This document shows, piece after piece, positions 20,028 to 59,713 of a stretch of 64,000 nt of DNA. The notes beneath the pieces were generated by a model. The model made no database searches. It was not told where the DNA came from and saw nothing but the letters and a program-made list of their open reading frames with translations. The translations under genes were made by a program, and so were the position numbers. How positions within the stretch are numbered: position 1 is the stretch's first letter; the number at the start of each line of letters is the position of its first letter. Origin of the DNA: an uncultured Candidatus Peribacteria bacterium (lineage in GTDB: Bacteria > Patescibacteriota > Gracilibacteria > RBG-16-42-10); assembly GCA_964514565.1 (NCBI GenBank), contig CAZERA010000003.1:25221-89220 (forward strand). The letters are read 5' to 3'.

Positions 20028-20054
20028 CGAGATCATCAGATCTCGTCTCTTTCC
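20028..20054 (+). terminator. Hairpin directly after tRNA-Pro(GGG): cgagatc-atca-gatctcg followed by tctctttcc
   Basis: 7-bp perfect stem with a pyrimidine-rich tail. The same structure follows the second tRNA-Pro. Confidence 0.55.
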
Positions 20055-20118
20055 CATTTCCTCTTTCCTAATCTGATGAGCATCTTTCCGGTGCTCGCAG
20101 AATAAGGATAAGAATGAT

Positions 20119-26583: not shown

Positions 26584-27804
26584 ATGTCTAGCGATCAAGC
26601 TGTTTCAGCTGTCATTCTCAAATATATCGGAAGTAGTAATGATGTTTTAAAGGCTTCTTTTTCTGGTATTCTGAAAGATATAAACAATCCTTGGATCCGG
26701 GTAACTTTGCGTCCAATTTTGATCAAAGCTGAAGAGTATGTACAGTTTTCTTTTTATGATGAGAAGAAATGTATCGTCAAAAATTATCGTGGTCCTGAGT
26801 ATGTCACTGCAATCCATGACCTAATAGCTTTGTCTTTTAAGAATATTTTTATTGAAAGTACTAAAGGCACTTTGCAGATTCAGACTAGTAAGAAAGGAAA
26901 ATTGTTAATTAACGAAAGTGCAAAGGTAAAAGCCAAGGAGGAAGTGGACCTGAAGCATAATCGCACCAAGCAATATATCCTACCTGAAGATGTTCCTAGT
27001 GATTTTTTGGAAGCAGTGGGGATTATGACCAAGGAAGGCAAAGTAAAAGCAGACAAACAACATAAGTTTCGTCAGCTCAATGGCTTCCTCAAAATCATTG
27101 ATGAAACTTTGACCAAGGCTGATAAAGTATTGGATCTGAAAAAAGGGGAGTTGTTAGCAATTGATTGTGGCTGTGGCAATGCTTATTTAACTTTTGCTGT
27201 TTATAATTATTTCAATTATATCCTCAAGCGTCCTTTAACTTTAGTTGGGGTTGATTCCAATAAGCCCTTATTAGAAAGGCACTTACAGCAAATTGAAAAG
27301 CTGGAATGGGATAAGCTGCAATTTGAAGGAGTCAAGATTAGTGAATATGTGCCACCGAAAAATCCTGATATTGTCTTGGCTCTCCATGCTTGCAATACTG
27401 CTACTGATGATGCTTTATTCCAAGCAATTACTTGGGAATCACAGATGGTATTCGCTTCACCTTGCTGCCATCACAATCTTCAGGTGCAGCTAGAAAAACA
27501 GCTGGGAAACTTGGCACTCTTTGCGCCCTTATTTCGCTATGGCGTGTTGAGTGAGCGATTGGGAGATATTATTACCGACTCTTTCCGTGCTTTGATTTTG
27601 CGTATCATGGGGTATCAAACCGATGTCATTGAGTTTGTCAGTACTGATCACACTAATCGCAATCTGATTATTAGAGCAATTAAGTGTTTGGAGCCAGGCG
27701 ATAAGAAATTTGTTGAGGAATATAAGGCACTCAAAGAGGTTTGGCATGTGACGCCTTATTTGGAGGAATTGTTGGGGGAAAGATTGACGCAGTATTTAGT
27801 TTAA
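26584..27804 (+). CDS. SAM-dependent methyltransferase (class I, Methyltransf_32-like) with an N-terminal extension
   Basis: LAIDCGCGNAYLTFAVY (motif I) ... LVGVDSN ... DIVLALHACNTATD. Confidence 0.6.
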   Translation: MSSDQAVSAVILKYIGSSNDVLKASFSGILKDINNPWIRVTLRPILIKAEEYVQFSFYDEKKCIVKNYRGPEYVTAIHDLIALSFKNIFIESTKGTLQIQTSKKGKLLINESAKVKAKEEVDLKHNRTKQYILPEDVPSDFLEAVGIMTKEGKVKADKQHKFRQLNGFLKIIDETLTKADKVLDLKKGELLAIDCGCGNAYLTFAVYNYFNYILKRPLTLVGVDSNKPLLERHLQQIEKLEWDKLQFEGVKISEYVPPKNPDIVLALHACNTATDDALFQAITWESQMVFASPCCHHNLQVQLEKQLGNLALFAPLFRYGVLSERLGDIITDSFRALILRIMGYQTDVIEFVSTDHTNRNLIIRAIKCLEPGDKKFVEEYKALKEVWHVTPYLEELLGERLTQYLV

Positions 27805-27840
27805 TAACGTTGATTTCAACTGGTTAGGAATGAGGACATA

Positions 27841-27867
27841 GGAAAGAGACGAGATCTGGTGATCTCG
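27841..27867 (-). terminator. Hairpin directly after tRNA-Pro(CGG): cgagatc-acca-gatctcg followed by tctctttcc (minus-strand reading)
   Basis: Inverted copy of the hairpin and tail at 20028..20054. Confidence 0.55.
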
Positions 27868-47334: not shown

Positions 47335-48312
47335 ATGGGAATAGATAAGAGGAAACCACGTTCAATTCGGGCAATAGCGAATATGGTGGCTATTGATACT
47401 AGTCACCCTGATCGCACAATCTTATTTGATGTTTATTATCAATTACAAAAGGCCTTGGGGACTGATAATCATACATTGGCTTTTCAGTGTGCAATTGATG
47501 GTGTGGTGTATGGTGTGACCTTGATCCGAGAGCAAGGGAAGGTGACATGTAGACTGTTTGCCTTTATTGATGAGCATCAGTCAGAGATTCTTTGGCCCTC
47601 TGTTGAGCATATTCTGCATGGTATCTACGCTATTAGCGATTTACGTACGGGCTTTGATTTTAAAGCTTTCTCTGCTGAAATTGCTAATTCGTTTGAGGAG
47701 CCAATGCCAGTTACTCGACGTAGATTAGCCTCAGTTTTAGGTCCCGAAGATGCAGAACCTGATGATTTGGCGACTCGTTTGAGACAAGCAGCAGAATTAG
47801 CCGCGGAGTTTGGTGATGAGGGACCAGCTGATCCTCGCCATGTTTCACTTGGTGTTTCTTTTCCTATCCCATCTATTGCTCCTGCGACGCCACCTAAACA
47901 GCAGCAACCTGGTCGGCGCAAATCAGTGATATTTGTTCCCAGCCCAGAATCTCTACCAACCGCAATAGCTGTTGTGAGAGCAAGAATTCATTCGGTTTTT
48001 CTAGGCAATAAAGAGGCCAAGAAAACAATTATGCTTGATGAATGTGCAATACGTGTAACGGAAGCTTTATTAAGCAGGAGAGATGAATTTGCTAAAAGAG
48101 ATGCACGCCACCCACTTCGACGAGCTTGGCCCCAGCAACAGGAACATGTCCTTTATATCCATCATACCGAGCAAGGTTTGTGGGTATATGCTGGACCAGC
48201 TGGTTTACAAAACAAGAATAGAATTTTTATTCCTTTTCAGCTGGATGGTAGTTATGTGAAAATTCCTCCTAATGCACCATGGCAATTGATTGCAGATATG
48301 TTGGGGGTGTAG
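47335..48312 (+). CDS. Hypothetical protein (325 aa)
   Basis: ORF starting 5 nt after the previous stop. No motif recognised. Confidence 0.65.
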   Translation: MGIDKRKPRSIRAIANMVAIDTSHPDRTILFDVYYQLQKALGTDNHTLAFQCAIDGVVYGVTLIREQGKVTCRLFAFIDEHQSEILWPSVEHILHGIYAISDLRTGFDFKAFSAEIANSFEEPMPVTRRRLASVLGPEDAEPDDLATRLRQAAELAAEFGDEGPADPRHVSLGVSFPIPSIAPATPPKQQQPGRRKSVIFVPSPESLPTAIAVVRARIHSVFLGNKEAKKTIMLDECAIRVTEALLSRRDEFAKRDARHPLRRAWPQQQEHVLYIHHTEQGLWVYAGPAGLQNKNRIFIPFQLDGSYVKIPPNAPWQLIADMLGV

Positions 48313-48342
48313 TAAAGAAATAGTAGTTTTAACTCTTATCCC

Positions 48343-48843
48343 ATGGCTGAGGCAACCAATCCATTTCTGCACGAAGTAGTAATTACCACCATCATTGTGC
48401 GTGATGGCAAATATTTGATTACTCGTAGAGCTGCCACTAAACGTCGTTTTCCCAGTATGTGGACTGTACCTGGTGGGAGATTGGAGACTAGTGATTACAT
48501 CAATCTACCAAAACAAACTGAGTTCTATTGGTACAATGTCCTAGAGCAAGTCGCTAAACGTGAAGTGGCCGAAGAGGTAGGTTTGCAGATTACCAATATC
48601 CGTTATGTGACTAGTCTCGCTACTATTCATGCTGATGGTAATCCATCTTTAGTGATTTCTTGTATTGCTGACTATGTCAGTGGTGATGTGAAGCTACAAT
48701 TGGAGGAGACTGATGCTGCTGAGTGGGTCAGTCTGGAAGATGCTAAAAAATATGATTTGATCGATGGTATCTATGATGAGTTAGCAATGGCTGAGAAAGT
48801 ACGACTAGGTGCTAGTAGCGGCGAATGGAGTCGCGAGCAATAA
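48343..48843 (+). CDS. NUDIX hydrolase
   Basis: Nudix box GGRLETSDY...VAKREVAEEVGL. 166 aa. Confidence 0.75.
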   Translation: MAEATNPFLHEVVITTIIVRDGKYLITRRAATKRRFPSMWTVPGGRLETSDYINLPKQTEFYWYNVLEQVAKREVAEEVGLQITNIRYVTSLATIHADGNPSLVISCIADYVSGDVKLQLEETDAAEWVSLEDAKKYDLIDGIYDELAMAEKVRLGASSGEWSREQ

Positions 48844-48856
48844 TTTTTGATTTTGT

Positions 48857-49891
48857 ATGATTTGGTCTCCTGAAAAGCGGGAATATGAAGTTGCTAAGTA
48901 TCAACAGCGTCAGCATCGGGCGATTGGCTCAAAAATAGTTGATGTGTGGCAGGAGGAGACCAATCAAGTTGTTTTGAATCGAGGGCGTTTAATGCAGTTG
49001 TTTCATCAGCTGAAGCCTTGGTTAGAGAAAGCTAGGTTGGCGCCAATGGCTACTTCAAGGGGATATCAAGTTGATGCGTCTTATGCAGCGAAAATTGAAG
49101 GATTTACCACTCAATCCCATCGCGTGAGACTAGATGATGGTAGTGAATTCTTTGCGCTTTATAATTATCCCCAAGGTAAATGGCGTCGTCGTTCGGATCG
49201 GATGACTGAGGTTCTCACTGGAGACAAAATGCGAAAACCTGCGCCTGATCAGTGGAAGAGCAGAGTAGAGTCTCGTAGCATAATCCCTACTGTACAAATG
49301 CCAGATGATTTGGGGCATCCTGATCAAGCAGATTTGGTAGTGATGCCTTATATTCCATCAATCAATGGTTATGATTTGTTTGCTCGTCCTCAGGAGATTA
49401 CTGACTGGGGTATTTTTCAGGCTATGCAAGGTCTCAATTGGGAACAATCAATGCACCTTTTACAAAAAGTAGCTGTAGCTTTGGCTTCACTGCATACCAA
49501 TAAACTGAGCTGGGGAGAGTCTATTTTGCAAAATGTAGTTTTTACTCCCGAACGAGTTCCACTGTGGGTAGATGCTGAGATGGCTTATCGCAATATGACA
49601 TGGGAGCGCGAGCAAGCGACTGATGTGCGTAATCTTGCTGTTTCCAGTCTGGGCTCTTTTTCTGATGGATATCCTCAGCATTTTGATGAAAGCGAAATAC
49701 TACACACATTGCTAACCGTGCAATCAACAGAAGTGTTGGTAGACTTGGATCGACTTTGTGCCGAGCAGATGGGATGGTTTCAAGCACGAGCATTTGAACA
49801 CTTTGGTAAATATCGACTAGGAGCCAAAAATCGCACGCATTTTGAAGCGTGTAAGCAAGCGATTAGAGGCAAATTAAAGGAATTGTTGTAA
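48857..49891 (+). CDS. Kinase-fold protein (RIO/Kdo/APH-like) with a degenerate catalytic loop; possible pseudokinase
   Basis: LVVMPYIPSINGYDLF is hinge-like. ALASLHTNKLSWGESILQNVVF occupies the place of LH..G..HGDL...N, with Asp replaced by Glu. LWVDAEMAY stands in for IDFE/DFG, and TDVRNL follows. Confidence 0.4.
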   Translation: MIWSPEKREYEVAKYQQRQHRAIGSKIVDVWQEETNQVVLNRGRLMQLFHQLKPWLEKARLAPMATSRGYQVDASYAAKIEGFTTQSHRVRLDDGSEFFALYNYPQGKWRRRSDRMTEVLTGDKMRKPAPDQWKSRVESRSIIPTVQMPDDLGHPDQADLVVMPYIPSINGYDLFARPQEITDWGIFQAMQGLNWEQSMHLLQKVAVALASLHTNKLSWGESILQNVVFTPERVPLWVDAEMAYRNMTWEREQATDVRNLAVSSLGSFSDGYPQHFDESEILHTLLTVQSTEVLVDLDRLCAEQMGWFQARAFEHFGKYRLGAKNRTHFEACKQAIRGKLKELL

Positions 49892-49954
49892 TTGACATTA
49901 TTGTAGGTTGCTTTACGATAAAGGCCCCATTGGTAGGGTGTTTATTTACGATTT

Positions 49955-50476
49955 ATGAATAACAGAACTAAATTTTTTGGTCATGAGAGGGCTCCAGTTT
50001 CAGCAACTACAGGTAGACCTTCATCCATTTTATTTCATCTCAACGAGTCACTAGAAAGATTAGTATTGGCAGAAGGACCAGATGTTACTCTATCGCGAGC
50101 TATGATGGCACAAATTTTAAAAGGTTTTCAATCAAGGTCAGTTGCCTATTCTTTGGAGACGGCATCAGGACAAACCTTTGATTTCGTTTTCATTCCTGCC
50201 AATAAAATGAGCAGGTATGGAGCAATTCAAGTGACTGAACGGATTACACCAGGTCGGTCCCGTTTAGTATGGCGTATGCCATTTATCACTCCAACAATAC
50301 TAAACGACGGCCTCACTCCAGACGCGAAATTAGCAATCTATACTATAGATGCGCAAGATGAAATGTTGTTGCGTGATCTATTCAGAAAAGAACAAACAGC
50401 ACAAAGAGAGAAGACGTACAAAGTATTAAATTTTGCCGGCCCTGGTTCTGCGCAGTCAGGACAATCAAGTCTATAA
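49955..50476 (+). CDS. Hypothetical protein (173 aa)
   Basis: ORF only. Its 3' end overlaps the convergent EVE gene by 6 nt. Confidence 0.55.
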   Translation: MNNRTKFFGHERAPVSATTGRPSSILFHLNESLERLVLAEGPDVTLSRAMMAQILKGFQSRSVAYSLETASGQTFDFVFIPANKMSRYGAIQVTERITPGRSRLVWRMPFITPTILNDGLTPDAKLAIYTIDAQDEMLLRDLFRKEQTAQREKTYKVLNFAGPGSAQSGQSSL

Positions 50477-50878
50477 ACCGCTCATAGAGGTAATCGCGTG
50501 ATAGTCTGCTTCGCTAATAGGAATAACTGAAAGCCTGCTATGTTTCACAATTAGCATTTTGCTTAGGGTAGGATGCTCTTTTAGGGTAGCTAAACTCACG
50601 GGAGTGCCTAGTTGTTTTTGGGCTCGAATATCGACACAAACCCAATTGGATTCTTCTGTCGTAGGATCTTGGTAAGCAGGTTTGATTACTTCAGCAATGC
50701 CCACGATACTTTTTTCATCACCACTATGATAAATGAAGCAGATATCTCCTTCTTTCATGGCGCGTAAGTTGTTGCGAGCTTGGTAATTACGTATGCCAGT
50801 CCAAGCCGTATGTTGGTCTTTGAGCAGATCTTGCCAGCTATAGGTAGATGGCTCAGTTTTGAGAATGAAATAATTCAT
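50471..50878 (-). CDS. EVE (PUA-like, DUF55) domain protein
   Basis: MNYFILKTEPSTYSWQDL......W.GIRNYQARNNLRAMKEGDICFIYHSG....IVGIAEV is the canonical EVE pattern. Confidence 0.8.
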   Translation of the reverse strand: MNYFILKTEPSTYSWQDLLKDQHTAWTGIRNYQARNNLRAMKEGDICFIYHSGDEKSIVGIAEVIKPAYQDPTTEESNWVCVDIRAQKQLGTPVSLATLKEHPTLSKMLIVKHSRLSVIPISEADYHAITSMSGL

Positions 50879-51009
50879 AGGGGCAAATTAACAATTTACA
50901 GTGATCAATTTACAATGAGAATTTGAAAGCGCAAAGATTCACTCTATAAAGAAGATTGCACTGCCAATTTGGCTGAAATTCTGCTACAATAAAAAGAATA
51001 CAAAAAAAC

Positions 51010-52629
51010 ATGTCCCCTGATAGTCACGATGACATTAGCGAAACACTCCGGCCAGTTCAGCCCCAAGCTAATAAAGATAAAGCTGAGCTAGGGACTGCAG
51101 ATGCGGCACAAGAAACTGTTCATCTTGTTTTGGATGCTTTGCGCGGCCTTGATGCAAAGGCCAATGTCCCGACTGATACTTTTATTGGAGGTGGTGCAGT
51201 TGGACTGATTGACCCAACACAAGTGGAGAAACTTATTAAGCTTGACGAAGAAGCACACGCTGTGCCATTGGTACGAAAAAAGGATAAGCTTGTTGCTCCT
51301 GAAGTTTCAGCTGAACCTCCTTCAAAAGACGTGATTGCTCAAGCAGTTGAGAAGCGAATGACTCTGGAAGAAGCTGAACGGTTTCGTAATGCTCGAGCTG
51401 TACAGCTGCAGTATGTTTTAGGCTTAGTTACCAATCAGAGTCCAACAAATCATTTTGATTTAGCCCACCTTTTAGCCAATGCTAAAAGCCATTGTCCAGA
51501 CTTTAGCCAAGAAGAGCTTCTGGCTATGATAAACCAGCATGATTTGGTCCGTAGTAATCTGCATCTTCAGGGAGCTTTAATTACTGGTGGCAGAAAAGTA
51601 GTAGAAGGTCCTGACCATAAGCCCGTCAGCATTTTTAGTATGAGGCTGCTAGGACAAGGTGGTTTAGGAAAGGTGACTGATGCTTATTTGCTTAAAGACG
51701 CCATGTTTGTACCTGCGGTAGTGAAAGAATCTCATCAGTGGGAAATTGACCCCAAAGATCCTGAAGCTCCAGCTAAAATGAGACAGAATCAGATTTTTCA
51801 ATCCAATTTCTTGGTGGAAATGAACAATGCTATCGACTGTTTACAGCATAATGTTCCTGGGATGATCAGGCCGTTGTTGGTAGTGCCTGGGAACGGTGCT
51901 GATGAAAGCTCACTGATAGCTTATGAAAAGATTGCTAATAAAGATGGAGAATCTTTAGACTTCGGGTATTTAGCTACTGATCCACGCTTTTTAATTTCAA
52001 AAAAGGTAGCTGCTTTTGCTGGTGCTGCTACTATTTTGGCGGATTTACATGCGTCGGGTAGAGCTCACTTAGATTTCAAACCAGAGAATGTAATGGTAAA
52101 TGAAAAAGGGGAGCCGATAATAATCGATATTGGTAGCAGAATTGCTTTAACCGATGAAGTTCATGTCGATCCTGATGCTGACCCAAAACCTTATGGCAGT
52201 ATTACTAAGCGCTTTGATTATGGTATGCAAGGACTAGGATTTACGCCTGATATGGTACCACTTGCTAGAGTAAAAAATGCTTTAGGACAAGGCAAAGGTC
52301 TAGAAGTGATAGATCGTATCGCTTTAGGTAATAGTCTTGTTACACTGTTGCAATATGCCAATTTTCTGACTAATCCTAATTTCCCAGATTTAATTTCCTA
52401 TCAGAAATATTTCAACCTACCAGATGATCAGTATCCACCGCAGTCGCTAAAGGATATGCTTGCGCTAGCAGCTGAATTGCGCGATATTGATTCTGATACG
52501 CCACTCCGATCACTACGAGTGATTGCAGATGAGATTCGACTAATTGCTACCCGTTTTCAGCTAGATCTTGATTTGTTACAAATTGAGGTCGGTAAACAAC
52601 ACAATATAGTGCTTAAATCTGATTTATAG
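51010..52629 (+). CDS. Hanks-type Ser/Thr protein kinase with a ~200-aa N-terminal region of unknown function
   Basis: G-loop LLGQGGLGKV, Lys in PAVVKES, catalytic loop AHLDFKPENVMV and IIIDIGS (DFG equivalent). Confidence 0.75.
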   Translation: MSPDSHDDISETLRPVQPQANKDKAELGTADAAQETVHLVLDALRGLDAKANVPTDTFIGGGAVGLIDPTQVEKLIKLDEEAHAVPLVRKKDKLVAPEVSAEPPSKDVIAQAVEKRMTLEEAERFRNARAVQLQYVLGLVTNQSPTNHFDLAHLLANAKSHCPDFSQEELLAMINQHDLVRSNLHLQGALITGGRKVVEGPDHKPVSIFSMRLLGQGGLGKVTDAYLLKDAMFVPAVVKESHQWEIDPKDPEAPAKMRQNQIFQSNFLVEMNNAIDCLQHNVPGMIRPLLVVPGNGADESSLIAYEKIANKDGESLDFGYLATDPRFLISKKVAAFAGAATILADLHASGRAHLDFKPENVMVNEKGEPIIIDIGSRIALTDEVHVDPDADPKPYGSITKRFDYGMQGLGFTPDMVPLARVKNALGQGKGLEVIDRIALGNSLVTLLQYANFLTNPNFPDLISYQKYFNLPDDQYPPQSLKDMLALAAELRDIDSDTPLRSLRVIADEIRLIATRFQLDLDLLQIEVGKQHNIVLKSDL

Positions 52630-52637
52630 ATATTTTT

Positions 52638-53219
52638 ATGATCAATACACCATCATCAATTCCACCCGTGCAAACACCTGAGGCTTTAGCCGCAGTAAAA
52701 CGAGTAACTACTCGTATAGCAGTGACTTCAGTTTTGGCCGCTGCTGGTAATCAGCATGATCAGTTGCAAGAAATATCTTTGTCAGACTATCAAGCTGCAG
52801 TTTCTGCTGCCCCCAAAAGACTTTTGAATCCTGCGAGTTGGGCTGGTTTCTTGGCGAGATTTTCTAAGAGGCCTCTTCCATTTGGTGCCATGCCGGGTAG
52901 TAGTAAATCAAAGATTGATTGTAGTCAGTATGTAAATGGTGAATATATTTTGGCTATACTTCCCACCGACCTCAATGGTGTGGCTTGGAATGAAAGAGAC
53001 ATTGCTGCTGGTGAGCAGTTTTGTTTCCAACCAGCTGGTGGCAATCAGTTGGCCCAAGTAGCCAGTATTTTGCCAGCAGCTGTTCGAGCTGCAGGCACAT
53101 TTCAATTACAATTTTTGCCCGGTGAGGACAAAGCAACAAAAGTAACTGCTGCTCTCCAAACTGCGTACGGAAGGATTCAAGCTTTGACACTTGGTAGCGA
53201 GGGGACTGCTGCAGCTTAA
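52638..53219 (+). CDS. Hypothetical protein (193 aa)
   Basis: ORF starting 8 nt after the kinase stop. No motif recognised. Confidence 0.55.
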   Translation: MINTPSSIPPVQTPEALAAVKRVTTRIAVTSVLAAAGNQHDQLQEISLSDYQAAVSAAPKRLLNPASWAGFLARFSKRPLPFGAMPGSSKSKIDCSQYVNGEYILAILPTDLNGVAWNERDIAAGEQFCFQPAGGNQLAQVASILPAAVRAAGTFQLQFLPGEDKATKVTAALQTAYGRIQALTLGSEGTAAA

Positions 53220-53319
53220 GCGAGATTTTTTACTTGCTGTATATTCAAGCAAAGAAAAAGAACCATTTTGCTTGAACAAAACTAAATTACCTATTAAGAT
53301 GCAGTCGCTTCTGATAGAT

Positions 53320-53394
53320 GCCACTTTAGCTCAATGGTAGAGCAATCGCTTTGTAAGCGAAAGGTTGTCGGTTCAAGTCCGACAAGTGGCTCCA
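53320..53394 (+). tRNA. tRNA-Thr (anticodon UGU)
   Basis: Hand fold: acceptor GCCACTT/AAGTGGC, D arm GCTC-AATGGTA-GAGC, anticodon arm ATCGC-TTTGTAA-GCGAA (one A-A mismatch), T arm GTCGG-TTCAAGT-CCGAC, encoded CCA followed by a T-run. Confidence 0.85.
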
Positions 53395-53477
53395 TTTTTA
53401 TAAAATACGTATTGAATCGAACTAACTATTATCTTCAATAAGATAATGATAGGATTCTTTCGATTAAATCCCCATCT

Positions 53478-54137
53478 ATGAATCCTAGGGTTGCCGCTTG
53501 CATAATAATGGTCACTGCTTTTTGTGGTGTCTTGTTAGCACCACAGACCGTACTTGCAAACACCTATTCAGATGTTGCTTCTAGCGACGCTGACTTTGCA
53601 GCAATTAGTAGCTTAACGAACTGGGGTGTGATATCGGGAAGTGAAGATGGCCAGTTTCATCCTGATTCACCTCTGACTAGATGCGAACTTGCGAAAATTG
53701 CAAGGTTAGCGAATGCTCACAGACCCAATGGCCAGTTCTTACCTTTAACTGGTAGTGGTGAACCTCAAGAATTTTCAGATATTCCTACCAGTCATTGGTG
53801 TCACCATTATGTCCGTGAACTGAAATACCACAATGTGCTTAACGGCTATCCTGATGGCACATTCAGACCCAACCAAAAAGTCACTCAGATTGAGGCCTTG
53901 AAAATTTTAATCAATAGTCTGAAAGCAGGTCCACTACAGGAGGACTTTATCAATAATCGCTATACTGATGTACAAAGTACTGACTGGTGGGCACCGTATA
54001 TTCAACATGTAATGGTATACCGTCTTACATATGGCCACGATGAAGCGAGTTACGGAATTGGCAAATTAATGTCACGGCGTGAAGCGGCAAGAATCACCTA
54101 TAATCTTTTGCAAATTTTCGATTACAGCTCTAACTAA
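53478..54137 (+). CDS. Small secreted protein made of three SLH domains
   Basis: Signal peptide, then YSDVASSDADFAAISSLTNWGVISG, FSDIPTSHWCHHYVRELKYHNVLNGYPDGTFRPNQKVTQIEALKILI and YTDVQSTDWWAPYIQHV. Confidence 0.8.
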   Translation: MNPRVAACIIMVTAFCGVLLAPQTVLANTYSDVASSDADFAAISSLTNWGVISGSEDGQFHPDSPLTRCELAKIARLANAHRPNGQFLPLTGSGEPQEFSDIPTSHWCHHYVRELKYHNVLNGYPDGTFRPNQKVTQIEALKILINSLKAGPLQEDFINNRYTDVQSTDWWAPYIQHVMVYRLTYGHDEASYGIGKLMSRREAARITYNLLQIFDYSSN

Positions 54138-54181
54138 ATATCCTTATAGTTATTTAGCTTTTTGTCATTCTGATAATTTCT

Positions 54182-54628
54182 TTATTTGCCAAGTGTAGAT
54201 AGTTCAGCATTTTTTACTGCCCATCGATGGAATTCGTGTGCTGTGGATTGCAGAAATTCGTTTGGGTCAATCCACAAGACCTTATGATCTGCTTCTAGTC
54301 CTTTTGACTGTCCCTTTTTGTGCTCCACTGTGCATCGAAAATATGTACCTATTTTGTTGATAGGCCCAAGATCTGACATCGGAAAGAACTGGTTGGCATT
54401 GCCAATTATGTGGTGATCAATAACGGTTAAGCCTGTTTCTTCCTTGATTTCTCGTATTACAGCAGCAACAGGATCCTCTCCGTTATCGATTCCTCCGCCT
54501 GGCAAGTGGTATCTACCACGAACAAAAACTACCAGTAATTTTTGGGCTTTGTTGGTAATTACAGCATACGCACCAGGTCTATCTTTGAATTCACCTATTG
54601 GTGTGCCAAACTGTGGCGTGGTAGTCAT
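54182..54628 (-). CDS. NUDIX hydrolase
   Basis: Nudix box LPGGGIDNGEDPVAAVIREIKEETGL. 148 aa. Confidence 0.8.
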   Translation of the reverse strand: MTTTPQFGTPIGEFKDRPGAYAVITNKAQKLLVVFVRGRYHLPGGGIDNGEDPVAAVIREIKEETGLTVIDHHIIGNANQFFPMSDLGPINKIGTYFRCTVEHKKGQSKGLEADHKVLWIDPNEFLQSTAHEFHRWAVKNAELSTLGK

Positions 54629-54755
54629 GGGAAAGGAGTTGAAATTTTAGAGACTGTAGAACATGGCTTGGTCCTAGTCAAAATTCTAGTTCAAGCTATT
54701 ACACTTATTATATGTTGCTAGTATTACGGTGACTGAGTGTTGGTTTTGCTACAGC

Positions 54756-54905
54756 TAAGGATGATAAATGAGCTCTTTAACTGTGACTTCATCAGTGCAT
54801 TGGTTTCGGACCCTACTCCATCTTACTGACCGCTGCCTTAAGGGTTCGACATGGAAATGATACAAAATGTTACTTTGCTCACAATCTTCTCCATTTTTCG
54901 GCATA
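54756..54905 (-). CDS. Unannotated small ORF (49 aa), member A of a repeated small-protein family
   Basis: My translation is MPKNGEDCEQSNILYHFHVEPLRQRSVRWSRVRNQCTDEVTVKELIYHP. It falls below the 60-aa cutoff of the ORF track. It is homologous to the copies at 56879..57038 and 58260..58424, with substitutions concentrated at codon third positions. Confidence 0.4.
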
Positions 54906-55001
54906 CGCAAGAGAGAATACTTATACTTTAGTATAGGTTTCTTTGAGTGAGAGATTTATATTGCAAAATCTGTTAAAATGTAATGAACTAATTATTTTGC
55001 T

Positions 55002-56804
55002 ATGGATCGGGAGAAGAATAGAGAAAGTAATCATTCATCTGCACCAGATGATCGTGGAATCACGCGAAGAAGATTTTTGGGTGTACTGGGTGCTGCATTA
55101 GCGGCTAGCTGTAAGCCAAATGATAGACCCTCGGTTCAACCTAGAGCTCAACATCCCCATGTTGTTCCAGCTGTTCCACCAACTAGAAACGACGAAATAC
55201 CGAATACCTTCCAGCCAGCTCCTGACAACGAGCGTGAGACTATGCGCTATAATGACTGGCCACAGTCAACTCTTAATCCAATTGAACGCGCTGAAGCCGA
55301 AGCACGAGTACGGGAATTTATTGAAAGACTCAATAGATTAGATGGTGAGATTTTGAGGCAATTTGGTATTCGTAGCGGTATTGGTGATATGAGGCATTAT
55401 AGTATGAATGAACTACCACCAGATCCTCGATTCAACCCGGTGCGGGATATCCACGATACTTTGGAAAATCTCTCTATGTCCGAACAGGCACGTGTTAGAG
55501 CAATGGTGTCTAGCAGTGATGTTCTTGCCAGCTTTGAAAGAGTGAGTGTTGATATTTTTCGTTTGAAGGATACAGATTCATTTTGGAGAATTTTAACTGT
55601 ATTTGCGAAGGGTAATTGTGAGAGACGAGCTTTCGCTGCTGTAGCACAATATGAACGAGCTCATAATATCAAAATGGTCATGCCTCGAGATGACTTCTAT
55701 TACTCAGCTAGACTAAAGGACTATGTACCTACTGGTAATGATATTTATAGTCAGGATATTGATCCAAGAAATATTTCCGGTCGGTCAACTGTATTTGATA
55801 GCGCAGAGCTAGATAGTCTTAATGCTCATCCAGGATGGGCAGGTAGGAGAAGACAACGACAGTTTAGAGAATTAGCAGGAAATGAAGCTATTGTGCAGTT
55901 AGCAAAAAATTCTGATTTTACTCTCGCTGAGTACTTCTCGTTGATTAAAGCAATCATTCATAACCGAGAACTTGCGCCAACTAATGTTAGGGAGAACGAT
56001 ATTGTTATTGCTCAGAGACTAGTCGCAGCTAATAGAGAGTTCGCTGAATCATCTCTTCTGGATCATGAGACCGATGCGGTAATTGTTTTCCATGGTTCTG
56101 ATCATGAGCACTGGGGAGACAGCCTTACAATTCCTGGTAATCATTTGGGGCGAGCTGATGACTCTTGGGATAAAATTGCAGCTGCTGCTGGTGTGTCTAG
56201 AGGTAAAGTCCATCGATTTGGAGCCAATCCAGAGCGTCAAGGGCCGAACCAGCTACCAGCTCTCTATAGAGCAATGAGTCATTCGAGAGGAAAGACGTTT
56301 GTCGCTTTTGATACACATGGTGATACTGATTATCTACAAGTTGATGATAGAACTCCTAATATGAAGCTAACTCCTGCTGATCTTGCTCGGTCTTTGCTTG
56401 ATCGTGTAAGGGCAATGCAAGATCCAGAGACTTTAGGACAAATGACATTATGTATGGAGGCTTGTTATACCTATGATTTTACTCATAATTTACTTCAAGA
56501 AATGCAGAGGCAATGGACAGCTGATGCTGCTTCTATTTGTGCCTTCGCTAACCTAAAATTACCTACCATCATTATTCCAGTACAAGAAGGATCTTACGCG
56601 GCACATAATTTCAAAGCTTTCAGAGTGCTACTCAAACAGTTAGTAGGTATCAGACGTGACCGAGGAATAAAAGGGGAGCGCATCCTTAAGAATGTCCAAC
56701 CAATAGGTTATCGAGAGCATGATTTTACCATCTTCACTTCAGGTACTGGAAAAGTCATCGAAATAGCTCAGAGAGACAGAAGCGCGGATGCAAGAGAAGC
56801 TTAG
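55002..56804 (+). CDS. Tat-signal lipoprotein with a C-terminal clan-CD (legumain/C13-like) cysteine-peptidase-like module
   Basis: The N-terminus GITRRRFLGVLGAALAASC combines a twin-Arg motif with a lipobox Cys. Later come AVIVFHGSDHEHWGD, FVAFDTHGDTDYL (His-Gly) and, 49 aa on, MTLCMEACYTYDF. These parallel legumain VVIVAGSNGWYNY / FTDHGSTG / FYIEACESG. Confidence 0.45.
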   Translation: MDREKNRESNHSSAPDDRGITRRRFLGVLGAALAASCKPNDRPSVQPRAQHPHVVPAVPPTRNDEIPNTFQPAPDNERETMRYNDWPQSTLNPIERAEAEARVREFIERLNRLDGEILRQFGIRSGIGDMRHYSMNELPPDPRFNPVRDIHDTLENLSMSEQARVRAMVSSSDVLASFERVSVDIFRLKDTDSFWRILTVFAKGNCERRAFAAVAQYERAHNIKMVMPRDDFYYSARLKDYVPTGNDIYSQDIDPRNISGRSTVFDSAELDSLNAHPGWAGRRRQRQFRELAGNEAIVQLAKNSDFTLAEYFSLIKAIIHNRELAPTNVRENDIVIAQRLVAANREFAESSLLDHETDAVIVFHGSDHEHWGDSLTIPGNHLGRADDSWDKIAAAAGVSRGKVHRFGANPERQGPNQLPALYRAMSHSRGKTFVAFDTHGDTDYLQVDDRTPNMKLTPADLARSLLDRVRAMQDPETLGQMTLCMEACYTYDFTHNLLQEMQRQWTADAASICAFANLKLPTIIIPVQEGSYAAHNFKAFRVLLKQLVGIRRDRGIKGERILKNVQPIGYREHDFTIFTSGTGKVIEIAQRDRSADAREA

Positions 56805-56878
56805 TTCTACCTCCTACCTCAGCTATTGAAGTAGCTCAATATATTGAACGAGCATTGAACCACGACGAGAAGCCCTAA

Positions 56879-57038
56879 TTAGGCAGCTTCTTTATAATTC
56901 CATTCTTTCACCACTACTTTATCAATGCCTTGATTCTTTGTGCCATTCCATCTCACTGATCGCTGTCTCAAGAGCTCGATATGAAAATGGTACAAAAAAT
57001 TACTTTGCTTACATTCTTCTCCATTTTTTGTGTTTCAT
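56879..57038 (-). pseudogene. Member B of the small-ORF family, disrupted by a +1 frameshift in an A6 run
   Basis: The open frame NTKNGEECKQSNFLYHFHIELLRQRSVRWNGTKNQGIDKVVVKEWNYKEAA* has no start codon. An ATG at 57038..57036 (ATG AAA CAC AAA AAA TGG...) comes into frame if one A of the run at 57024..57029 is removed; copy A has A5 at this position. Confidence 0.45.
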
Positions 57039-57122
57039 AATGAGCTTATTAATATCGCCTAGGCTGCCTGTATAAGAGTAGTTGTGATATAATTACTAGA
57101 ACAGTAGTTACACATCAACGTT

Positions 57123-58055
57123 ATGTTAGACGAACAGGAAGAACAATTGGAAAAAGACTTCGAGACCTTACGAGCAACGCGCGATCGAAAAGAGCGTGAA
57201 GCATTGCGACATCTTTTCATGGAGCGCCTGGCTAGTTTGCGAGAGTTTCCTATTCACAATGCAGTAGTAAGGAAGTACCTGCGTTTATTAATGCGAGATG
57301 GAGAGCTGGAGCGAGAGGTAATGAGAAAGTCTGTAGTAAGCGAATTGGGGATGCTTGATGCCATTAAGCTGCATAAAGATGAACAAGCTCGTCTGGAAAT
57401 TTTCTATGGCAAGTATGCCAAATTATATGAGGCGGATACCGAAGCAGCATTAGCTTTTGGTGTGGATAGAACTGATGCACCTCCTTGGGAGGCAATCAAA
57501 GCGAGCATCACACCGCGAATGATAAGCTTGATAGAAAAGCTCCCCGAGAAACGTCTTATTGTTGTAAGAGCATCGCGTCAGGACCTGATTGCTGCCATAG
57601 ATAGCCGAGTGGACAGCTATGGTATTAGAAGCAATAGCTCTATATATGAAATTACTGATGATCAATTATGGAATAATGGGGAGCGTGAGGATAGCATTAA
57701 TTGGCAGGTGTTGTTTATTGATGGTCGAGAAGATATTCCTTATGATAGAACTGTACAGAGCGGTAGGGCCGGTGACCAAGTACTTGCATTGCAGGCTCAA
57801 TATAAGGCTCAAGGGTACAGTATTTTAACAGGGGCACAGGCGTACTTAGGATTACAAATGCAAGGATTGGTTAGTGGCGTAATGATTGATTCGAAGTCCC
57901 ATACTGTACTAAATAGTGATGTCGTAGCAGCTGACCAGGAAGCTTTTCTCGGTAGTGGTCATTGTTACTTTGGCCAGGTCGCCTTTACCTTCAGTTATCC
58001 GCGCATGCCGGAGATTAATCTTCATCTGCGTCGTGTGGTTAGAGTGAATCGTTAA
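57123..58055 (+). CDS. Hypothetical protein (310 aa)
   Basis: ORF with a charged helical N-terminus. No motif recognised. Confidence 0.65.
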   Translation: MLDEQEEQLEKDFETLRATRDRKEREALRHLFMERLASLREFPIHNAVVRKYLRLLMRDGELEREVMRKSVVSELGMLDAIKLHKDEQARLEIFYGKYAKLYEADTEAALAFGVDRTDAPPWEAIKASITPRMISLIEKLPEKRLIVVRASRQDLIAAIDSRVDSYGIRSNSSIYEITDDQLWNNGEREDSINWQVLFIDGREDIPYDRTVQSGRAGDQVLALQAQYKAQGYSILTGAQAYLGLQMQGLVSGVMIDSKSHTVLNSDVVAADQEAFLGSGHCYFGQVAFTFSYPRMPEINLHLRRVVRVNR

Positions 58056-58092
58056 TCTTTGATCTTAGTGTCTTGTTTTTTTAAATTCTGCT

Positions 58093-58116
58093 CTCTTGAT
58101 TGCATCAAGAGTTTTT
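58093..58116 (+). terminator. Rho-independent terminator after CDS 57123..58055
   Basis: 8-bp stem ctcttgat / atcaagag with a 3-nt loop, followed by TTTTT. Confidence 0.6.
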
Positions 58117-58259
58117 GGAACGAGTCCAATTGGGAGATAGTTACCTGAATATAGACTCTGCTTAGTGTTCTTTAGGTAGTAAGGGGAGTAGAGACGACTA
58201 CCTTAGCTATTGAATAAAATTAACACAGTGAGGGGGGCGCTGAACTATGGTTTGAAGCC

Positions 58260-58424
58260 TCATTTGGTGGTCACCTTGTAATTACATTCTTTAATCACCA
58301 CCTCATTGACACATTGATTCCTGCTACTATTCCACTTAACAAATCGCTGCTTTAAGAGCTTGACGTGAAAGTGATATAGAAAATTACTTTGTTTACATTC
58401 TTCTCCACGAGTCCCCCCGCGCAT
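58260..58424 (-). CDS. Member C of the small-ORF family (54 aa); its first six codons come from the adjacent insertion
   Basis: My translation is MRGGTRGEECKQSNFLYHFHVKLLKQRFVKWNSSRNQCVNEVVIKECNYKVTTK. The ATG lies inside the palindrome gcATGc at 58422..58424. Confidence 0.35.
   Translation of the reverse strand: MRGGTRGEECKQSNFLYHFHVKLLKQRFVKWNSSRNQCVNEVVIKECNYKVTTK
58387..58407 (+). repeat. Left 21-bp direct repeat flanking the four-helix-bundle cassette (ctttgtttacattcttctcca)
   Basis: Matches 58938..58958 (ttttgcttccattcttctcca) at 18 of 21 positions. Both match the uninterrupted copy B sequence ctttgcttacattcttctcca. Confidence 0.7.
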
Positions 58425-58429
58425 GCGGG
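58416..58429. repeat. GC-rich palindromic hairpin, family member 6 (cccgc-gcat-gcggg)
   Basis: Located at the left edge of the inserted cassette. Nearly identical to the copy at 46076. Confidence 0.6.
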
Positions 58430-58576
58430 AGGCGAGTCTCTTTCCTATCTCCTAGCTCCTTTTCCTCATCATACAGCCTGTCGGACTCAAGGACAGAGGA
58501 ACGAGGAAATAGGAAATAATCGCTCAGAGAGAATTTCATAAATTAGTTACTAAAATGTGACTGAGTAACTTTTAGT

Positions 58577-58936
58577 ATGTTCATTTTCGAAACATTTCCT
58601 GTATATCAAAAGGCTGAAGCTATATACTCTGAGCTGTTATTAATTCTGCCTTCTCTCAAAGATAAAGTTCTTTCGGATCAATTGCGGCGTGCAATGACTA
58701 GTATTGTGTTAAACATTGCAGAGGGTAGTGGGAAGTTTAGTCCAAAGGAAAAGAAGAATTACTATTTAATCTCTCGAGCCCCGGTAAGTGAATGTGTGGC
58801 TATTTTGAGATTGCTTCATCTTCAAAACGTGATTTCTGAACTGCAGTTAAATTTATGGAAAGAAGCATTTTTAGTAATCCATAAAATGCTCAGTGGGATG
58901 ATCAAGACTTTTTCACAAAGTAAAAGAGATACTTAG
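58577..58936 (+). CDS. Four-helix-bundle protein (23S rRNA intervening-sequence protein / Avd family)
   Basis: 119 aa. FPVYQKAEAIYSELLLILPSL....L.DQLRRAMTSIVLNIAEGSGKFS.KEK..YY.ISR.S..EC.. is the canonical signature of this family. Confidence 0.85.
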   Translation: MFIFETFPVYQKAEAIYSELLLILPSLKDKVLSDQLRRAMTSIVLNIAEGSGKFSPKEKKNYYLISRAPVSECVAILRLLHLQNVISELQLNLWKEAFLVIHKMLSGMIKTFSQSKRDT

Positions 58937-58937
58937 A

Positions 58938-58958
58938 TTTTGCTTCCATTCTTCTCCA
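58938..58958 (+). repeat. Right 21-bp direct repeat flanking the four-helix-bundle cassette
   Basis: Begins 1 nt after the four-helix-bundle stop codon. See 58387..58407. Confidence 0.7.
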
Positions 58959-59038
58959 TTACAATGGCTTACAAGCGCTGCTTCTTAGATTTTTGCGTGG
59001 TGGGATTTACAACGTTATAAAAATTGAATCACTGAATA

Positions 59039-59713
59039 TCAATTACTTGATTTATGAAAAAGTTTTCTGTACTCCACATAAGAATAAACAATGGTGATAA
59101 TTGCAATGATCACTACAGGAGCAATGATCAATAACATTGCTATACCACTTGGGAAAAGTAGACCTAAAAGAGAAATTAGAGCGGCAAGTTTAAAGAGTTT
59201 CCCACCAAGTTTGTGAGTCTTTTCCCAAACTACATCGCTAGAAAGAGTCCATGGTGTGCGAATGCCTACAAACCAGTTGCGTTTTGATTTTTCAATTACT
59301 ATTCCGACAAAGTACCAAAGAACCACCATTGCAGGGATGATTGCAGTACTAAAGTTAAAGCGCGTACCCAGATTCCAAGCTATTTGCAAACCAAAAATGT
59401 ATAAAAGAAAGAGAAATCCCACGATCCAGAAATAATTGTAGTATTTTCTAAAAGATTGGATATTGGATTTTTGAGGATCAATTCGAGGCACTATCCAGTA
59501 AATCAAGAATAGTCCAGCGAGCAGGATAGGCAAAAAGAATACACCCCAAAACTTAGTCATATAGCCATTCACTTCTCCTGCAGCATTCCAATGAGAGGCC
59601 ACTTGATCAGGAAGTTGGGGATAGAAAATTACCCCTACCACAAGAGCTATAGCTATAAGTAGTAAGAGAATAATATTGGTGACTTTGTTCACTGGATAGG
59701 GAGTTAATAGCAC
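59039..59713 (-). CDS. SdpI/YhfL-family membrane protein with a DUF1648 N-terminal domain
   Basis: YPQLPDQVASHWNAAGEVNGYMTKFWGVFFLPIL is the DUF1648 pattern. Further TM helices and the W..THKLGGKLF motif of the SdpI family follow. GTG start. Confidence 0.7.
   Translation of the reverse strand: MLLTPYPVNKVTNIILLLLIAIALVVGVIFYPQLPDQVASHWNAAGEVNGYMTKFWGVFFLPILLAGLFLIYWIVPRIDPQKSNIQSFRKYYNYFWIVGFLFLLYIFGLQIAWNLGTRFNFSTAIIPAMVVLWYFVGIVIEKSKRNWFVGIRTPWTLSSDVVWEKTHKLGGKLFKLAALISLLGLLFPSGIAMLLIIAPVVIIAIITIVYSYVEYRKLFHKSSN

Follow-up and report, generated by a model that had tools for sequence, protein, structure and literature searches.

How did a gene for a four-helix-bundle (4HB) protein come to lie between two 21-bp direct repeats in an uncultured Candidatus Peribacteria bacterium, a member of the candidate phyla radiation (CPR)? 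The question concerns a 64-kb stretch of DNA, referred to here as the window (C3:25221–89220; positions without a contig refer to it), from a genome (G000) of 1.12 Mb in 7 contigs, with 41% GC and 93% completeness. An earlier note had taken the 530 bp between the repeats for an insertion into a repeated module with duplication of its target, or else for a product of site-specific recombination. We favor, with reasonable confidence, the reading that the 530 bp are a resident unit of tRNA trailer and 4HB gene, which stands as the last cassette of an array that is anchored at a tRNA-Thr gene and recombines precisely after the pentanucleotide CTCCA, and not an insertion with target duplication. 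This corrects the attractive idea of a 21-bp target duplication and builds on the anatomy of the locus, its homologies, the positions of its junctions and the differences in cassette order among strains and species, all of which can be read directly from the sequences.

The locus was compared across eight genomes of the family, including two of the same genus (G001, locus L045, and G002), one of another genus (G006, locus L082) and a further relative (G003, locus L169 on contig C40), as well as with metagenome contigs (L161, L164, L165 and L166, together with contigs in runs X2, X4 and X6). The locus also occurs in the wastewater samples X1, X2, X4 and X6.

The two 21-mers and the segment between them

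Both repeats lie on the (+) strand, as do all features below unless stated otherwise. The left 21-mer (ctttgtttacattcttctcca; 58387–58407) comprises the last 21 nt of module C, one copy of a ~120-nt repeat ending ...TCTTCTCCA. The right one (ttttgcttccattcttctcca; 58938–58958, with CTCCA at 58954–58958) is part of a slightly longer copy (58938–58960) that is probably the surviving 3′ end of a fourth module. The two are identical at 18 of 21 positions, in agreement with the three differences noticed before, and the right copy does continue like copy B, the next letters being "att" as in modules A and B. Specifically, it matches module B at 21 of 22 positions and the 25-mer core at 20 of 25, compared with a chance maximum of 18/25 in 2000 random 350-nt windows of the genome, real copies excepted. 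A repeat search of the window revealed four copies of the 22-mer, one closing each of modules A, B and C and the fourth at 58939–58960; BLAST of the 1.12-Mb genome returned no others.

Enclosed between the repeats, within 530 bp, are a hairpin, a pyrimidine arm facing a purine arm, and an intact 119-aa gene of the PF05635/TIGR02436 family. The palindrome at 58416–58429, the pyrimidine stretch with its inverted purine partner and the 119-aa open reading frame (ORF) are all present as first described, and so is the new ATG (58422–58424) that lengthens a small minus-strand ORF (58260–58424). A BLAST search of the 530 bp against the genome revealed that 58405–58520 (116 nt) is 84% identical to the 3′ flank of tRNA-Thr(GGT) (C1:519693–519808), the match running from CCA on. 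The left part of the segment (58408–58527) is thus a trailer of the tRNA-Thr type, designated T1, which aligns with T1 of G001, G002 and G006. Rfam at gathering thresholds recognized only five tRNAs in the 64-kb window and no rRNA, and a scan of 58100–59100 for sigma-70 promoters and terminators yielded nothing beyond shuffle expectation. A look for co-transcription in RNA-seq runs turned up none containing the locus.

A cassette array behind tRNA-Thr(TGT)

The array begins at tRNA-Thr(TGT) (53320–53394; called by ARAGORN and Rfam), which ends ...GGCTCCA, serves as the anchor (an attB-like left partner) and is 100% identical across all eight genomes of the family. Cassette c1 (53395–54893) starts with tttttataaa directly after CCA, carries a 219-aa ORF on the (+) strand and a 148-aa NUDIX ORF on the (−) strand, and closes with module A, whose end ...TCTTCTCCA falls at 54893. 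Cassette c2 (54894–57023) holds a 600-aa lipoprotein-like ORF and ends in module B, and c3 (57024–58407) holds a 310-aa ORFan and ends in module C (conserved part ~58288–58407, CTCCA at 58403–58407). Cassette c4 (58408–58958) consists of T1, the 4HB gene and the 22-mer. In G000, therefore, the three cassettes c1 to c3, 5,013 bp in total (53395–58407), separate tRNA-Thr(TGT) from its trailer. Modules A and B, too, cease to match each other 2–5 nt past ...ctcca; the position 58407 at which copy C had been said to break is correct, and it is an ordinary module end rather than a special disruption. Modules are confined to the region downstream of tRNA-Thr(TGT) in G000, G001, G002 and G006, where the cargo, such as the NUDIX protein in c1 and a KAP NTPase and a Fic protein elsewhere, is typical of a variable island.

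The unit in relatives and strain contigs

Related genomes display the 4HB unit directly at the tRNA gene. In G001, the counterparts of 53296–53395 and 58404–58942 are adjacent (L045 9311–9412 and 9408–9943, the latter at 84.7% identity) and overlap by 5 nt, CTCCA; in G002, the orthologous trailer and 4HB gene likewise lie directly behind tRNA-Thr(TGT). Upstream synteny (47335–53394) is kept with both genomes, while the content downstream of the 4HB gene is different in every genome. The tRNA-Thr of G006 has its own trailer, and 2 kb further on a module is joined to T1 and the 4HB gene exactly as in G000, with 58301–58912 colinear at 81.6% over 613 nt across the supposed insertion point. G001 contains, in addition, another module copy that is joined at the identical nucleotide to a paralogous trailer–4HB unit (56% amino-acid identity).

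The nearest protein cluster (P0001, 95% identity to the 4HB protein) is encoded on four contigs. Contig L161 reads, in order, a 313-aa gene, module-CTCCA|T1, the 4HB gene and 22-mer-CTCCAtt|tccgtcc..., and contig L164 reads tRNA-Thr(TGT)-CTCCA|T1, the 4HB gene and 22-mer-CTCCAtt|tccgtcc... One mismatch over 581 nt is the only difference between the two on the right side of CTCCA; on its left side they are unrelated. Such near-identical strains with a clean exchange at CTCCA offer a testable recombination site in the CPR, whose mobile elements are poorly known. In L166, tRNA-Thr|T1-4HB is fused to the NUDIX gene of G000 c1 and the 4HB gene is truncated, and in L165 the 4HB gene is fused 58 nt inside c2, ahead of the 600-aa gene. 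Metagenome contigs read ...CTCCA|CGAGTCCTCACATC after the tRNA. On contigs of runs X2, X4 and X6 the 4HB gene and 22-mer are followed by ttcgtccttctgag..., and on those of X4 and X6 tRNA-Thr is directly followed by cgag-type trailers, the X4 trailer reading as T1. The 4HB unit thus heads the array in L164, L166, G001 and G002 and closes it in G000.

For four reasons, these comparisons do not support the idea that the 4HB gene was inserted into module C and duplicated 21 bp of target. First, the same module–trailer junction recurs at the same nucleotide in G006 and, with the paralogous gene, in G001. Second, L164 has the right 21-mer with tRNA-Thr and no module as its left neighbor, so target duplication cannot have made the repeat. 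Third, the right repeat is present in G000, L161–L164 and the X2, X4 and X6 contigs and absent 3′ of the gene in G001, G002, G006, L165 and L166, all of which carry the unit. Fourth, the first 7–8 nt of the right repeat (ttttgct) already stand 3′ of the stop codon at the module-less G001 site. No strictly orthologous empty module could be defined, with downstream synteny unconserved in every genome pair.

Junctions and the origin of the right 21-mer

Seventeen junctions were tabulated, 11 at module or 22-mer ends and 6 at tRNA-Thr(TGT) ends, and all of them break after CTCCA, which is the sole sequence that the tRNA-Thr end and the module ends have in common. To the right of the break stands one of two kinds of partner: a T-run ahead of an unrelated gene (five different genes in all) or a cga...-type trailer (T0, T1, T2, a T1 remnant or cgatg...). 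The two reciprocal products occur together in G000 (tRNA|ttttt at 53394/5, module|T1 at 58407/8), whose inner junctions, module A|ttttt and module B|tttttt, have the same form as tRNA|ttttt. Exchanges this exact, recurrent and reciprocal, combined with variable cassette order, point to site-specific recombination. The earlier suggestion of a site-specific recombination product therefore holds in spirit: the left boundary is precise and recurrent after CTCCA, and the 4HB unit is one cassette among several.

The insertion with target duplication that had also been proposed did not survive comparison, since other 4HB loci lack such boundaries, and the 21-mer is accounted for by copies of the module that do not depend on the gene. 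After the stop codon, G001 reads tagatttttgct|agcg and keeps 2.7 kb and a full module behind the same gene. Modules read ..ttactttgct|tacattcttctcca, and G000 reads tagattttgct|tccattcttctcca. Judging from these sequences, the right 21-mer is probably the tail of another module that became fused to the 3′ flank of the 4HB gene by a deletion at the microhomology TTTGCT (proposed junction ttttgct, 58938–58944). The flank to the right of the 22-mer in L161 and L164 matches the flank of a complete module (m1) in G002 at 88.7% over 62 nt.

Proposed mechanism and competing explanations

The resident unit comprises a small hairpin, a long hairpin with four opposed heptamers per arm, a family-specific box and the 4HB gene, and its native place in related Peribacteria would be the first base after the CCA of tRNA-Thr(TGT). 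In G000, the 5,013-bp array of three cassettes would have come to stand between tRNA and trailer, with outer and inner junctions all exactly after CTCCA. A longer cassette, [T1-4HB ... module], as still seen in G001, would have lost its interior by the TTTGCT deletion to give [T1-4HB-22-mer]. The two 21-mers would then be the terminal sites of c3 and the adjoining c4, much like the repeated sites at the borders of integron cassettes; as the ends of consecutive cassettes they imply no target-site duplication. Conservative site-specific recombination after CTCCA, with integration and excision of circular cassettes, would fit this arrangement, and the recombining enzyme would be encoded outside the array. 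The 4HB gene would normally be expressed within or beside the tRNA transcription unit, with the long hairpin as a putative processing site, as in 23S rRNA intervening sequences (IVS).

Several observations weigh against this interpretation. No recombinase domain was found in or beside the array by Pfam and NCBIfam searches of the cassette ORFs. The whole genome, 93% complete, contains one tyrosine recombinase, which is XerC/D-like and lies on another contig (PF00589 match at C2:109625; gene at C2:109184–110203), and neither a serine recombinase (PF00239) nor a Y1 transposase (PF01797) nor a reverse transcriptase (PF00078), DDE-type families not having been scanned. The shared core is a mere 5 nt. 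The module does not fold as an attC-like palindrome would (z −1.6 to +0.2), and it carries a coding-type constraint that the model leaves unaccounted for. L164 is a single 900-nt metagenome contig in which a chimeric join through the repeated trailer is possible, and the tRNA-linked state is seen independently of it in G001, G002 and L166. The TTTGCT microhomology in G001 could instead be the remnant of a decayed 22-mer. Finally, the direction of events is unreadable from the sequences: the array could have been inserted to the left of the 4HB unit, or the 4HB unit could have been excised and re-integrated.

That last possibility can be cast as an alternative in which [trailer-4HB-22-mer] (58408–58958) is itself mobile: it would have left its place behind tRNA-Thr as a circle and entered module C at CTCCA, the last 22 nt of the module being a sufficient recombination site. 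We regard it as the less probable course, albeit one with points in its favor: the unit has ...TCTTCTCCA at either boundary, its place differs between the first position in L164, L166, G001 and G002 and the last in G000, and the 90% identity of the 4HB proteins of G000 and G006, as opposed to 59% for a neighboring gene, suggests horizontal movement. However, L161 and L164 also agree in what follows the 22-mer on the right, so their difference amounts to a change on the left side only; right boundaries elsewhere are scattered over 58912–58960, and most units have no 22-mer.

It seems improbable that the locus arose with no dedicated system at all, through illegitimate deletions, homologous exchange among modules or similar trailers, and selection for a trailer directly after a CCA-type end. 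Imprecise deletion joins do occur (58 nt inside c2 in L165, the truncated 4HB gene of L166, and the microhomology at the right 22-mer), no recombinase was found, and the stretch CTCCACGAGTCC common to the trailers of the three tRNA-Thr genes would be enough for some homologous exchange. Yet tRNA-Thr and the modules have only CTCCA in common, while at least 17 junctions fall at the same phosphodiester bond with two unrelated classes of partner, one genome holds both reciprocal products, and the altered cassette order requires more than deletions.

Least plausible, and to be given very little credence, is transposition of a 530-bp 4HB cassette into module C with duplication of 21 bp, which would explain the direct orientation of the flanking 21-mers, the right one running into "att", and the resemblance of G002 module m1 and its right flank to an "empty" form of the site filled in L161, but which fails on the left neighbor of the right copy in L164, on the exact left junctions without a right copy in G006 and G001, on the nature of the left end as a tRNA trailer found elsewhere after the CCA of tRNA genes, on the presence of the right copy's first 7–8 nt in the 4HB 3′ flank of G001, on the L161 module beside T1, which is closer to module B (89%) than to C (~83%, last 65 nt, by eye), so that the junctions are not traceable to one insertion in one module, and on the want of a transposase (no PF01797 or PF00239, the PF00589 match being Xer-like and DDE-type families not having been scanned).

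Trailers of the T1 design across the genome

The foot of T1, cgagtcc (58408–58414), pairs with ggactca (58483–58489) in the proposed model, and the palindrome at 58416–58429 forms a small hairpin. The pyrimidine arm (58440–58467) consists of four NNNTCCT heptamers and the purine arm (58490–58517) of four AGGANNN heptamers, AGGACAG AGGAACG AGGAAAT AGGAAAT. The predicted consensus fold has a conserved arm helix of ~30 bp and retains the small hairpin via compensatory changes, with a minimum free energy of −52 kcal/mol (z −2.74). A further short hairpin, AGTTACT...AGTAACT (58545–58570), lies just before the start codon of the 4HB gene.

About 18 of the 42 tRNA/tmRNA genes in G000 have a trailer of this design from the first base after CCA. 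Such trailers begin with a foot CGAKC..., often with a small GC hairpin of the tcccgc..gcggga family behind it. Next comes either a pyrimidine arm or a terminator hairpin; the foot is then completed by ...GMTCG, and AAGGATA-like repeats make up the purine arm that follows. The set includes ORF-less hairpins. In G003, T1 stands directly after tRNA-Thr(TGT) with no 4HB ORF, and its similarity to the window stops at ~58528, just before the box gaatttcataaatt that precedes the 4HB gene. Because the G003 trailer without an ORF breaks just before the box, hairpin and 4HB gene are separable, as the ORF-less hairpins behind the G000 tRNA genes also illustrate; the G003 site can be viewed as the empty member of an empty-versus-filled pair for the 4HB gene relative to the hairpin.

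An inverted pair of tRNA-Pro genes in the window has near-identical trailer copies at 20028–20110 and 27790–27867. Outside the window, at C3:109150–109340, a trailer of the T1 design follows an ...gttcaaaatccatccacaagcgtccacca end lacking an ARAGORN tRNA call, which may belong to a degenerate tRNA or to a stable RNA of another kind. A tandem of three tRNA-Ser(GGA) genes with repeated flanks lies at C1:479357–479870 with ~215-nt spacing, and in two of the genes ARAGORN places the anticodon at the unusual position 30.

The 4HB gene and its upstream box

The intact 119-aa 4HB protein (58577–58936) matches PF05635 over profile positions 4–106 of 106 (E 2.3e-19; 70 bits vs a cut-off of 33.8) and TIGR02436 with 68.5 bits (cut-off 24), and has no sequence match in PDB at E ≤ 0.001. 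It is 87% identical in amino acids to the G001 copy behind tRNA-Thr, 90% to that of G006 and 95% to P0001. The 90% identity between G000 and G006 compares with 59% for the neighboring conserved 135-aa gene (50471–50878), which suggests that the module–T1–4HB piece has been exchanged horizontally between genera.

G000 contains six PF05635 genes in two subfamilies of three. The first (MFIFE..VY...KMLSGMIK) comprises the gene at 58577–58936 and two others that lie directly behind trailers, after tmRNA and tRNA-Met. Genes of the second subfamily (C2:66335–66643, C1:78166–78465 and C2:61158–61412) each lie between a 5′ purine arm and a complementary 3′ pyrimidine arm (e.g., gaaagtggaaagtggaaa / tttccactttccactttc), an IVS-like layout, and no tRNA lies close to any gene of this second subfamily in the eight family genomes.

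The box gaatttcataaatt (58531–58544), ~33 nt before the ATG, is common to the 4HB genes of G000 and, from its placement, may be a promoter or operator. Its consensus RATTTCATWWWT has 16 matches in the genome, compared with ~8 expected, and four of these precede 4HB genes, ~33–45 nt before the start codons of both subfamilies (58531–58544, C1:18896, C1:78527 and C2:61486). An extra copy, possibly left behind by a 4HB gene since lost, follows the trailer of tRNA-Tyr at C1:479064 and has no gene behind it.

Wider distribution and comparison with known systems

PF05635 genes are very common, and to our knowledge they have no established function outside diversity-generating retroelements (DGRs) and no known means of spread. 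A profile of the subfamily was run against GTDB genomes, and the best 80 loci were examined. In 56 of these, a co-oriented tRNA/tmRNA gene ends 80–350 nt upstream of the 4HB gene, and the surveyed loci span the CPR, Planctomycetota, Omnitrophota, Pseudomonadota, Margulisiibacteriota and others. By comparison, the chance of a co-oriented tRNA within 400 nt is estimated at <1% in a genome such as this one (~22 same-strand tRNAs × 400 nt / 1.1 Mb). The spacers combine a short hairpin with long opposed low-complexity arms, and 59 tRNA-to-gene spacers gave a median fold z of −3.85 relative to shuffled sequences, with 86% below −2. The left boundary at the first base after CCA ties the 4HB family to stable-RNA transcription units generally, beyond 23S rRNA; a full-text literature search yielded no report of PF05635/TIGR02436 genes being associated with the 3′ flanks of tRNA genes.

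Among known systems, the locus is a variant both of tRNA-anchored island or cassette systems and of IVS-type 4HB units. ORF-containing IVS of 23S rRNA occur in Leptospira and, as S23p, in Coxiella burnetii. As in these, a PF05635 gene is tied to a long imperfect stem in a putative stable-RNA transcription unit, and the element is dispensable and patchily distributed. Unlike in these, no rRNA is involved (Rfam detected tRNAs only), and the unit follows a tRNA/tmRNA 3′ end rather than lying in the 23S gene (helix 25 or helix 45); in this subfamily, moreover, the stem precedes the ORF instead of enclosing it, and the arms are arrays of 7-nt units. Integrons share with the locus tandem unrelated genes, a ~120-nt repeated site ending each cassette, exact junctions at a conserved core, strain-variable order and content, and a fixed anchor site; here, however, no IntI-type integrase lies beside the array (the only PF00589 match being on another contig), the module behaves as coding sequence without an attC-like fold, and a tRNA gene provides the anchor with its CCA end.

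Islands at tRNA 3′ ends (with P4-type or SSV-type integrases) likewise insert at the end of a tRNA, accrete in tandem and carry variable cargo, and the attL- and attR-like reciprocal junctions of G000 can be set against the uninterrupted tRNA-Thr|T1 of G001, G002, L164 and L166. They differ in that the crossover here lies past the last tRNA base, with 5 nt of identity and no duplicated tRNA segment, and no integrase gene or remnant was recognized among the cassette ORFs (Pfam, NCBIfam). The Avd protein of DGRs belongs to the same superfamily, PF05635, but the genome has no reverse transcriptase, and the repeat search gave no template/variable pair near the gene. IS200/IS605 elements also insert immediately 3′ of a fixed pentanucleotide without duplication, can form tandem arrays and end in that word; they differ by a Y1 transposase, of which the genome has none, and by subterminal hairpins, which were not seen at the cassette ends.

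As a speculative extension, the findings might be taken to outline a cassette system in Peribacteria that resembles integrons, lacks an integrase and is anchored at the CCA end of tRNA-Thr(TGT). Recombination would take place at the final ~22 nt of a module that also has a conserved 44-aa frame, and the hairpin–4HB unit would be one cassette, always directly after a CTCCA end. The subfamily would then be a cross-phylum element at the first base after tRNA/tmRNA genes, with the classical 23S IVS as one special case, and the Avd-like protein and/or the heptamer arrays might help in placement; we put this forward as doubtful.

A minus-strand frame in the module

The coding-type constraint mentioned above concerns a frame on the (−) strand of the module (GEECKQSNFLYHFHIELLRQRSVRWNGTRNQGIDEVVVKE), which in the window occupies 54758–54892, 56882–57022 and 58263–58406. 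The module-C frame (58263–58406; 44–48 codons, GEECKQSNFLYHFHVKLL...) corresponds to the listed ORF 58260–58424, which takes its ATG from the trailer hairpin. Further copies were found at L045 12687–12807, at L046 9619–9834, 11729–11849 and 12678–12797, and in L058 and L161. Among nine copies, mean pairwise differences at codon positions 1, 2 and 3 are 0.197, 0.110 and 0.382, respectively, and the (+) strand has stops in all frames. Conservation begins exactly at the junction, and the first 27 nt are nearly invariant.

No start codon is conserved among the copies compared. An ATG or GTG invariably arises at the junction, but in another frame (MEKNVSKVIFCTIFISSS*); a frameshift from this codon was considered and dropped, as there is no conserved slippery site. 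In-silico circularization of the cassettes proved inconsistent as a source of start codons, c2 gaining MPKN and c3 none. Considered as a possible piece of a larger known protein, the frame has no Pfam match; a peptide profile built from six copies gave one spurious repeat match only among 1.84 billion representative proteins, and tblastn of the peptide within the genome's own class returned weak small-ORF look-alikes only (E 0.004–0.1). A reading of "YHFH" as an HUH-transposase motif was likewise abandoned, with one His conserved in distant look-alikes and a peptide that is too short. Nor does the module qualify as a structured RNA or attC-like site, given the stops in its plus-strand frames and folds no better than shuffles: DNA folds of either strand of modules B and C gave z = −1.59, −1.52, +0.20 and +0.22.

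Beside one of the weak look-alikes of the module peptide, in locus L070 (G175:C2, locus position ~1630–1760), lies a tRNA-like sequence, gggggggtatagctcaatggtagagc...ggttcgattcccgttacctccacca. It has no ARAGORN call, its anticodon region is followed by ~35 additional nt, and it may represent a tRNA with an intron.

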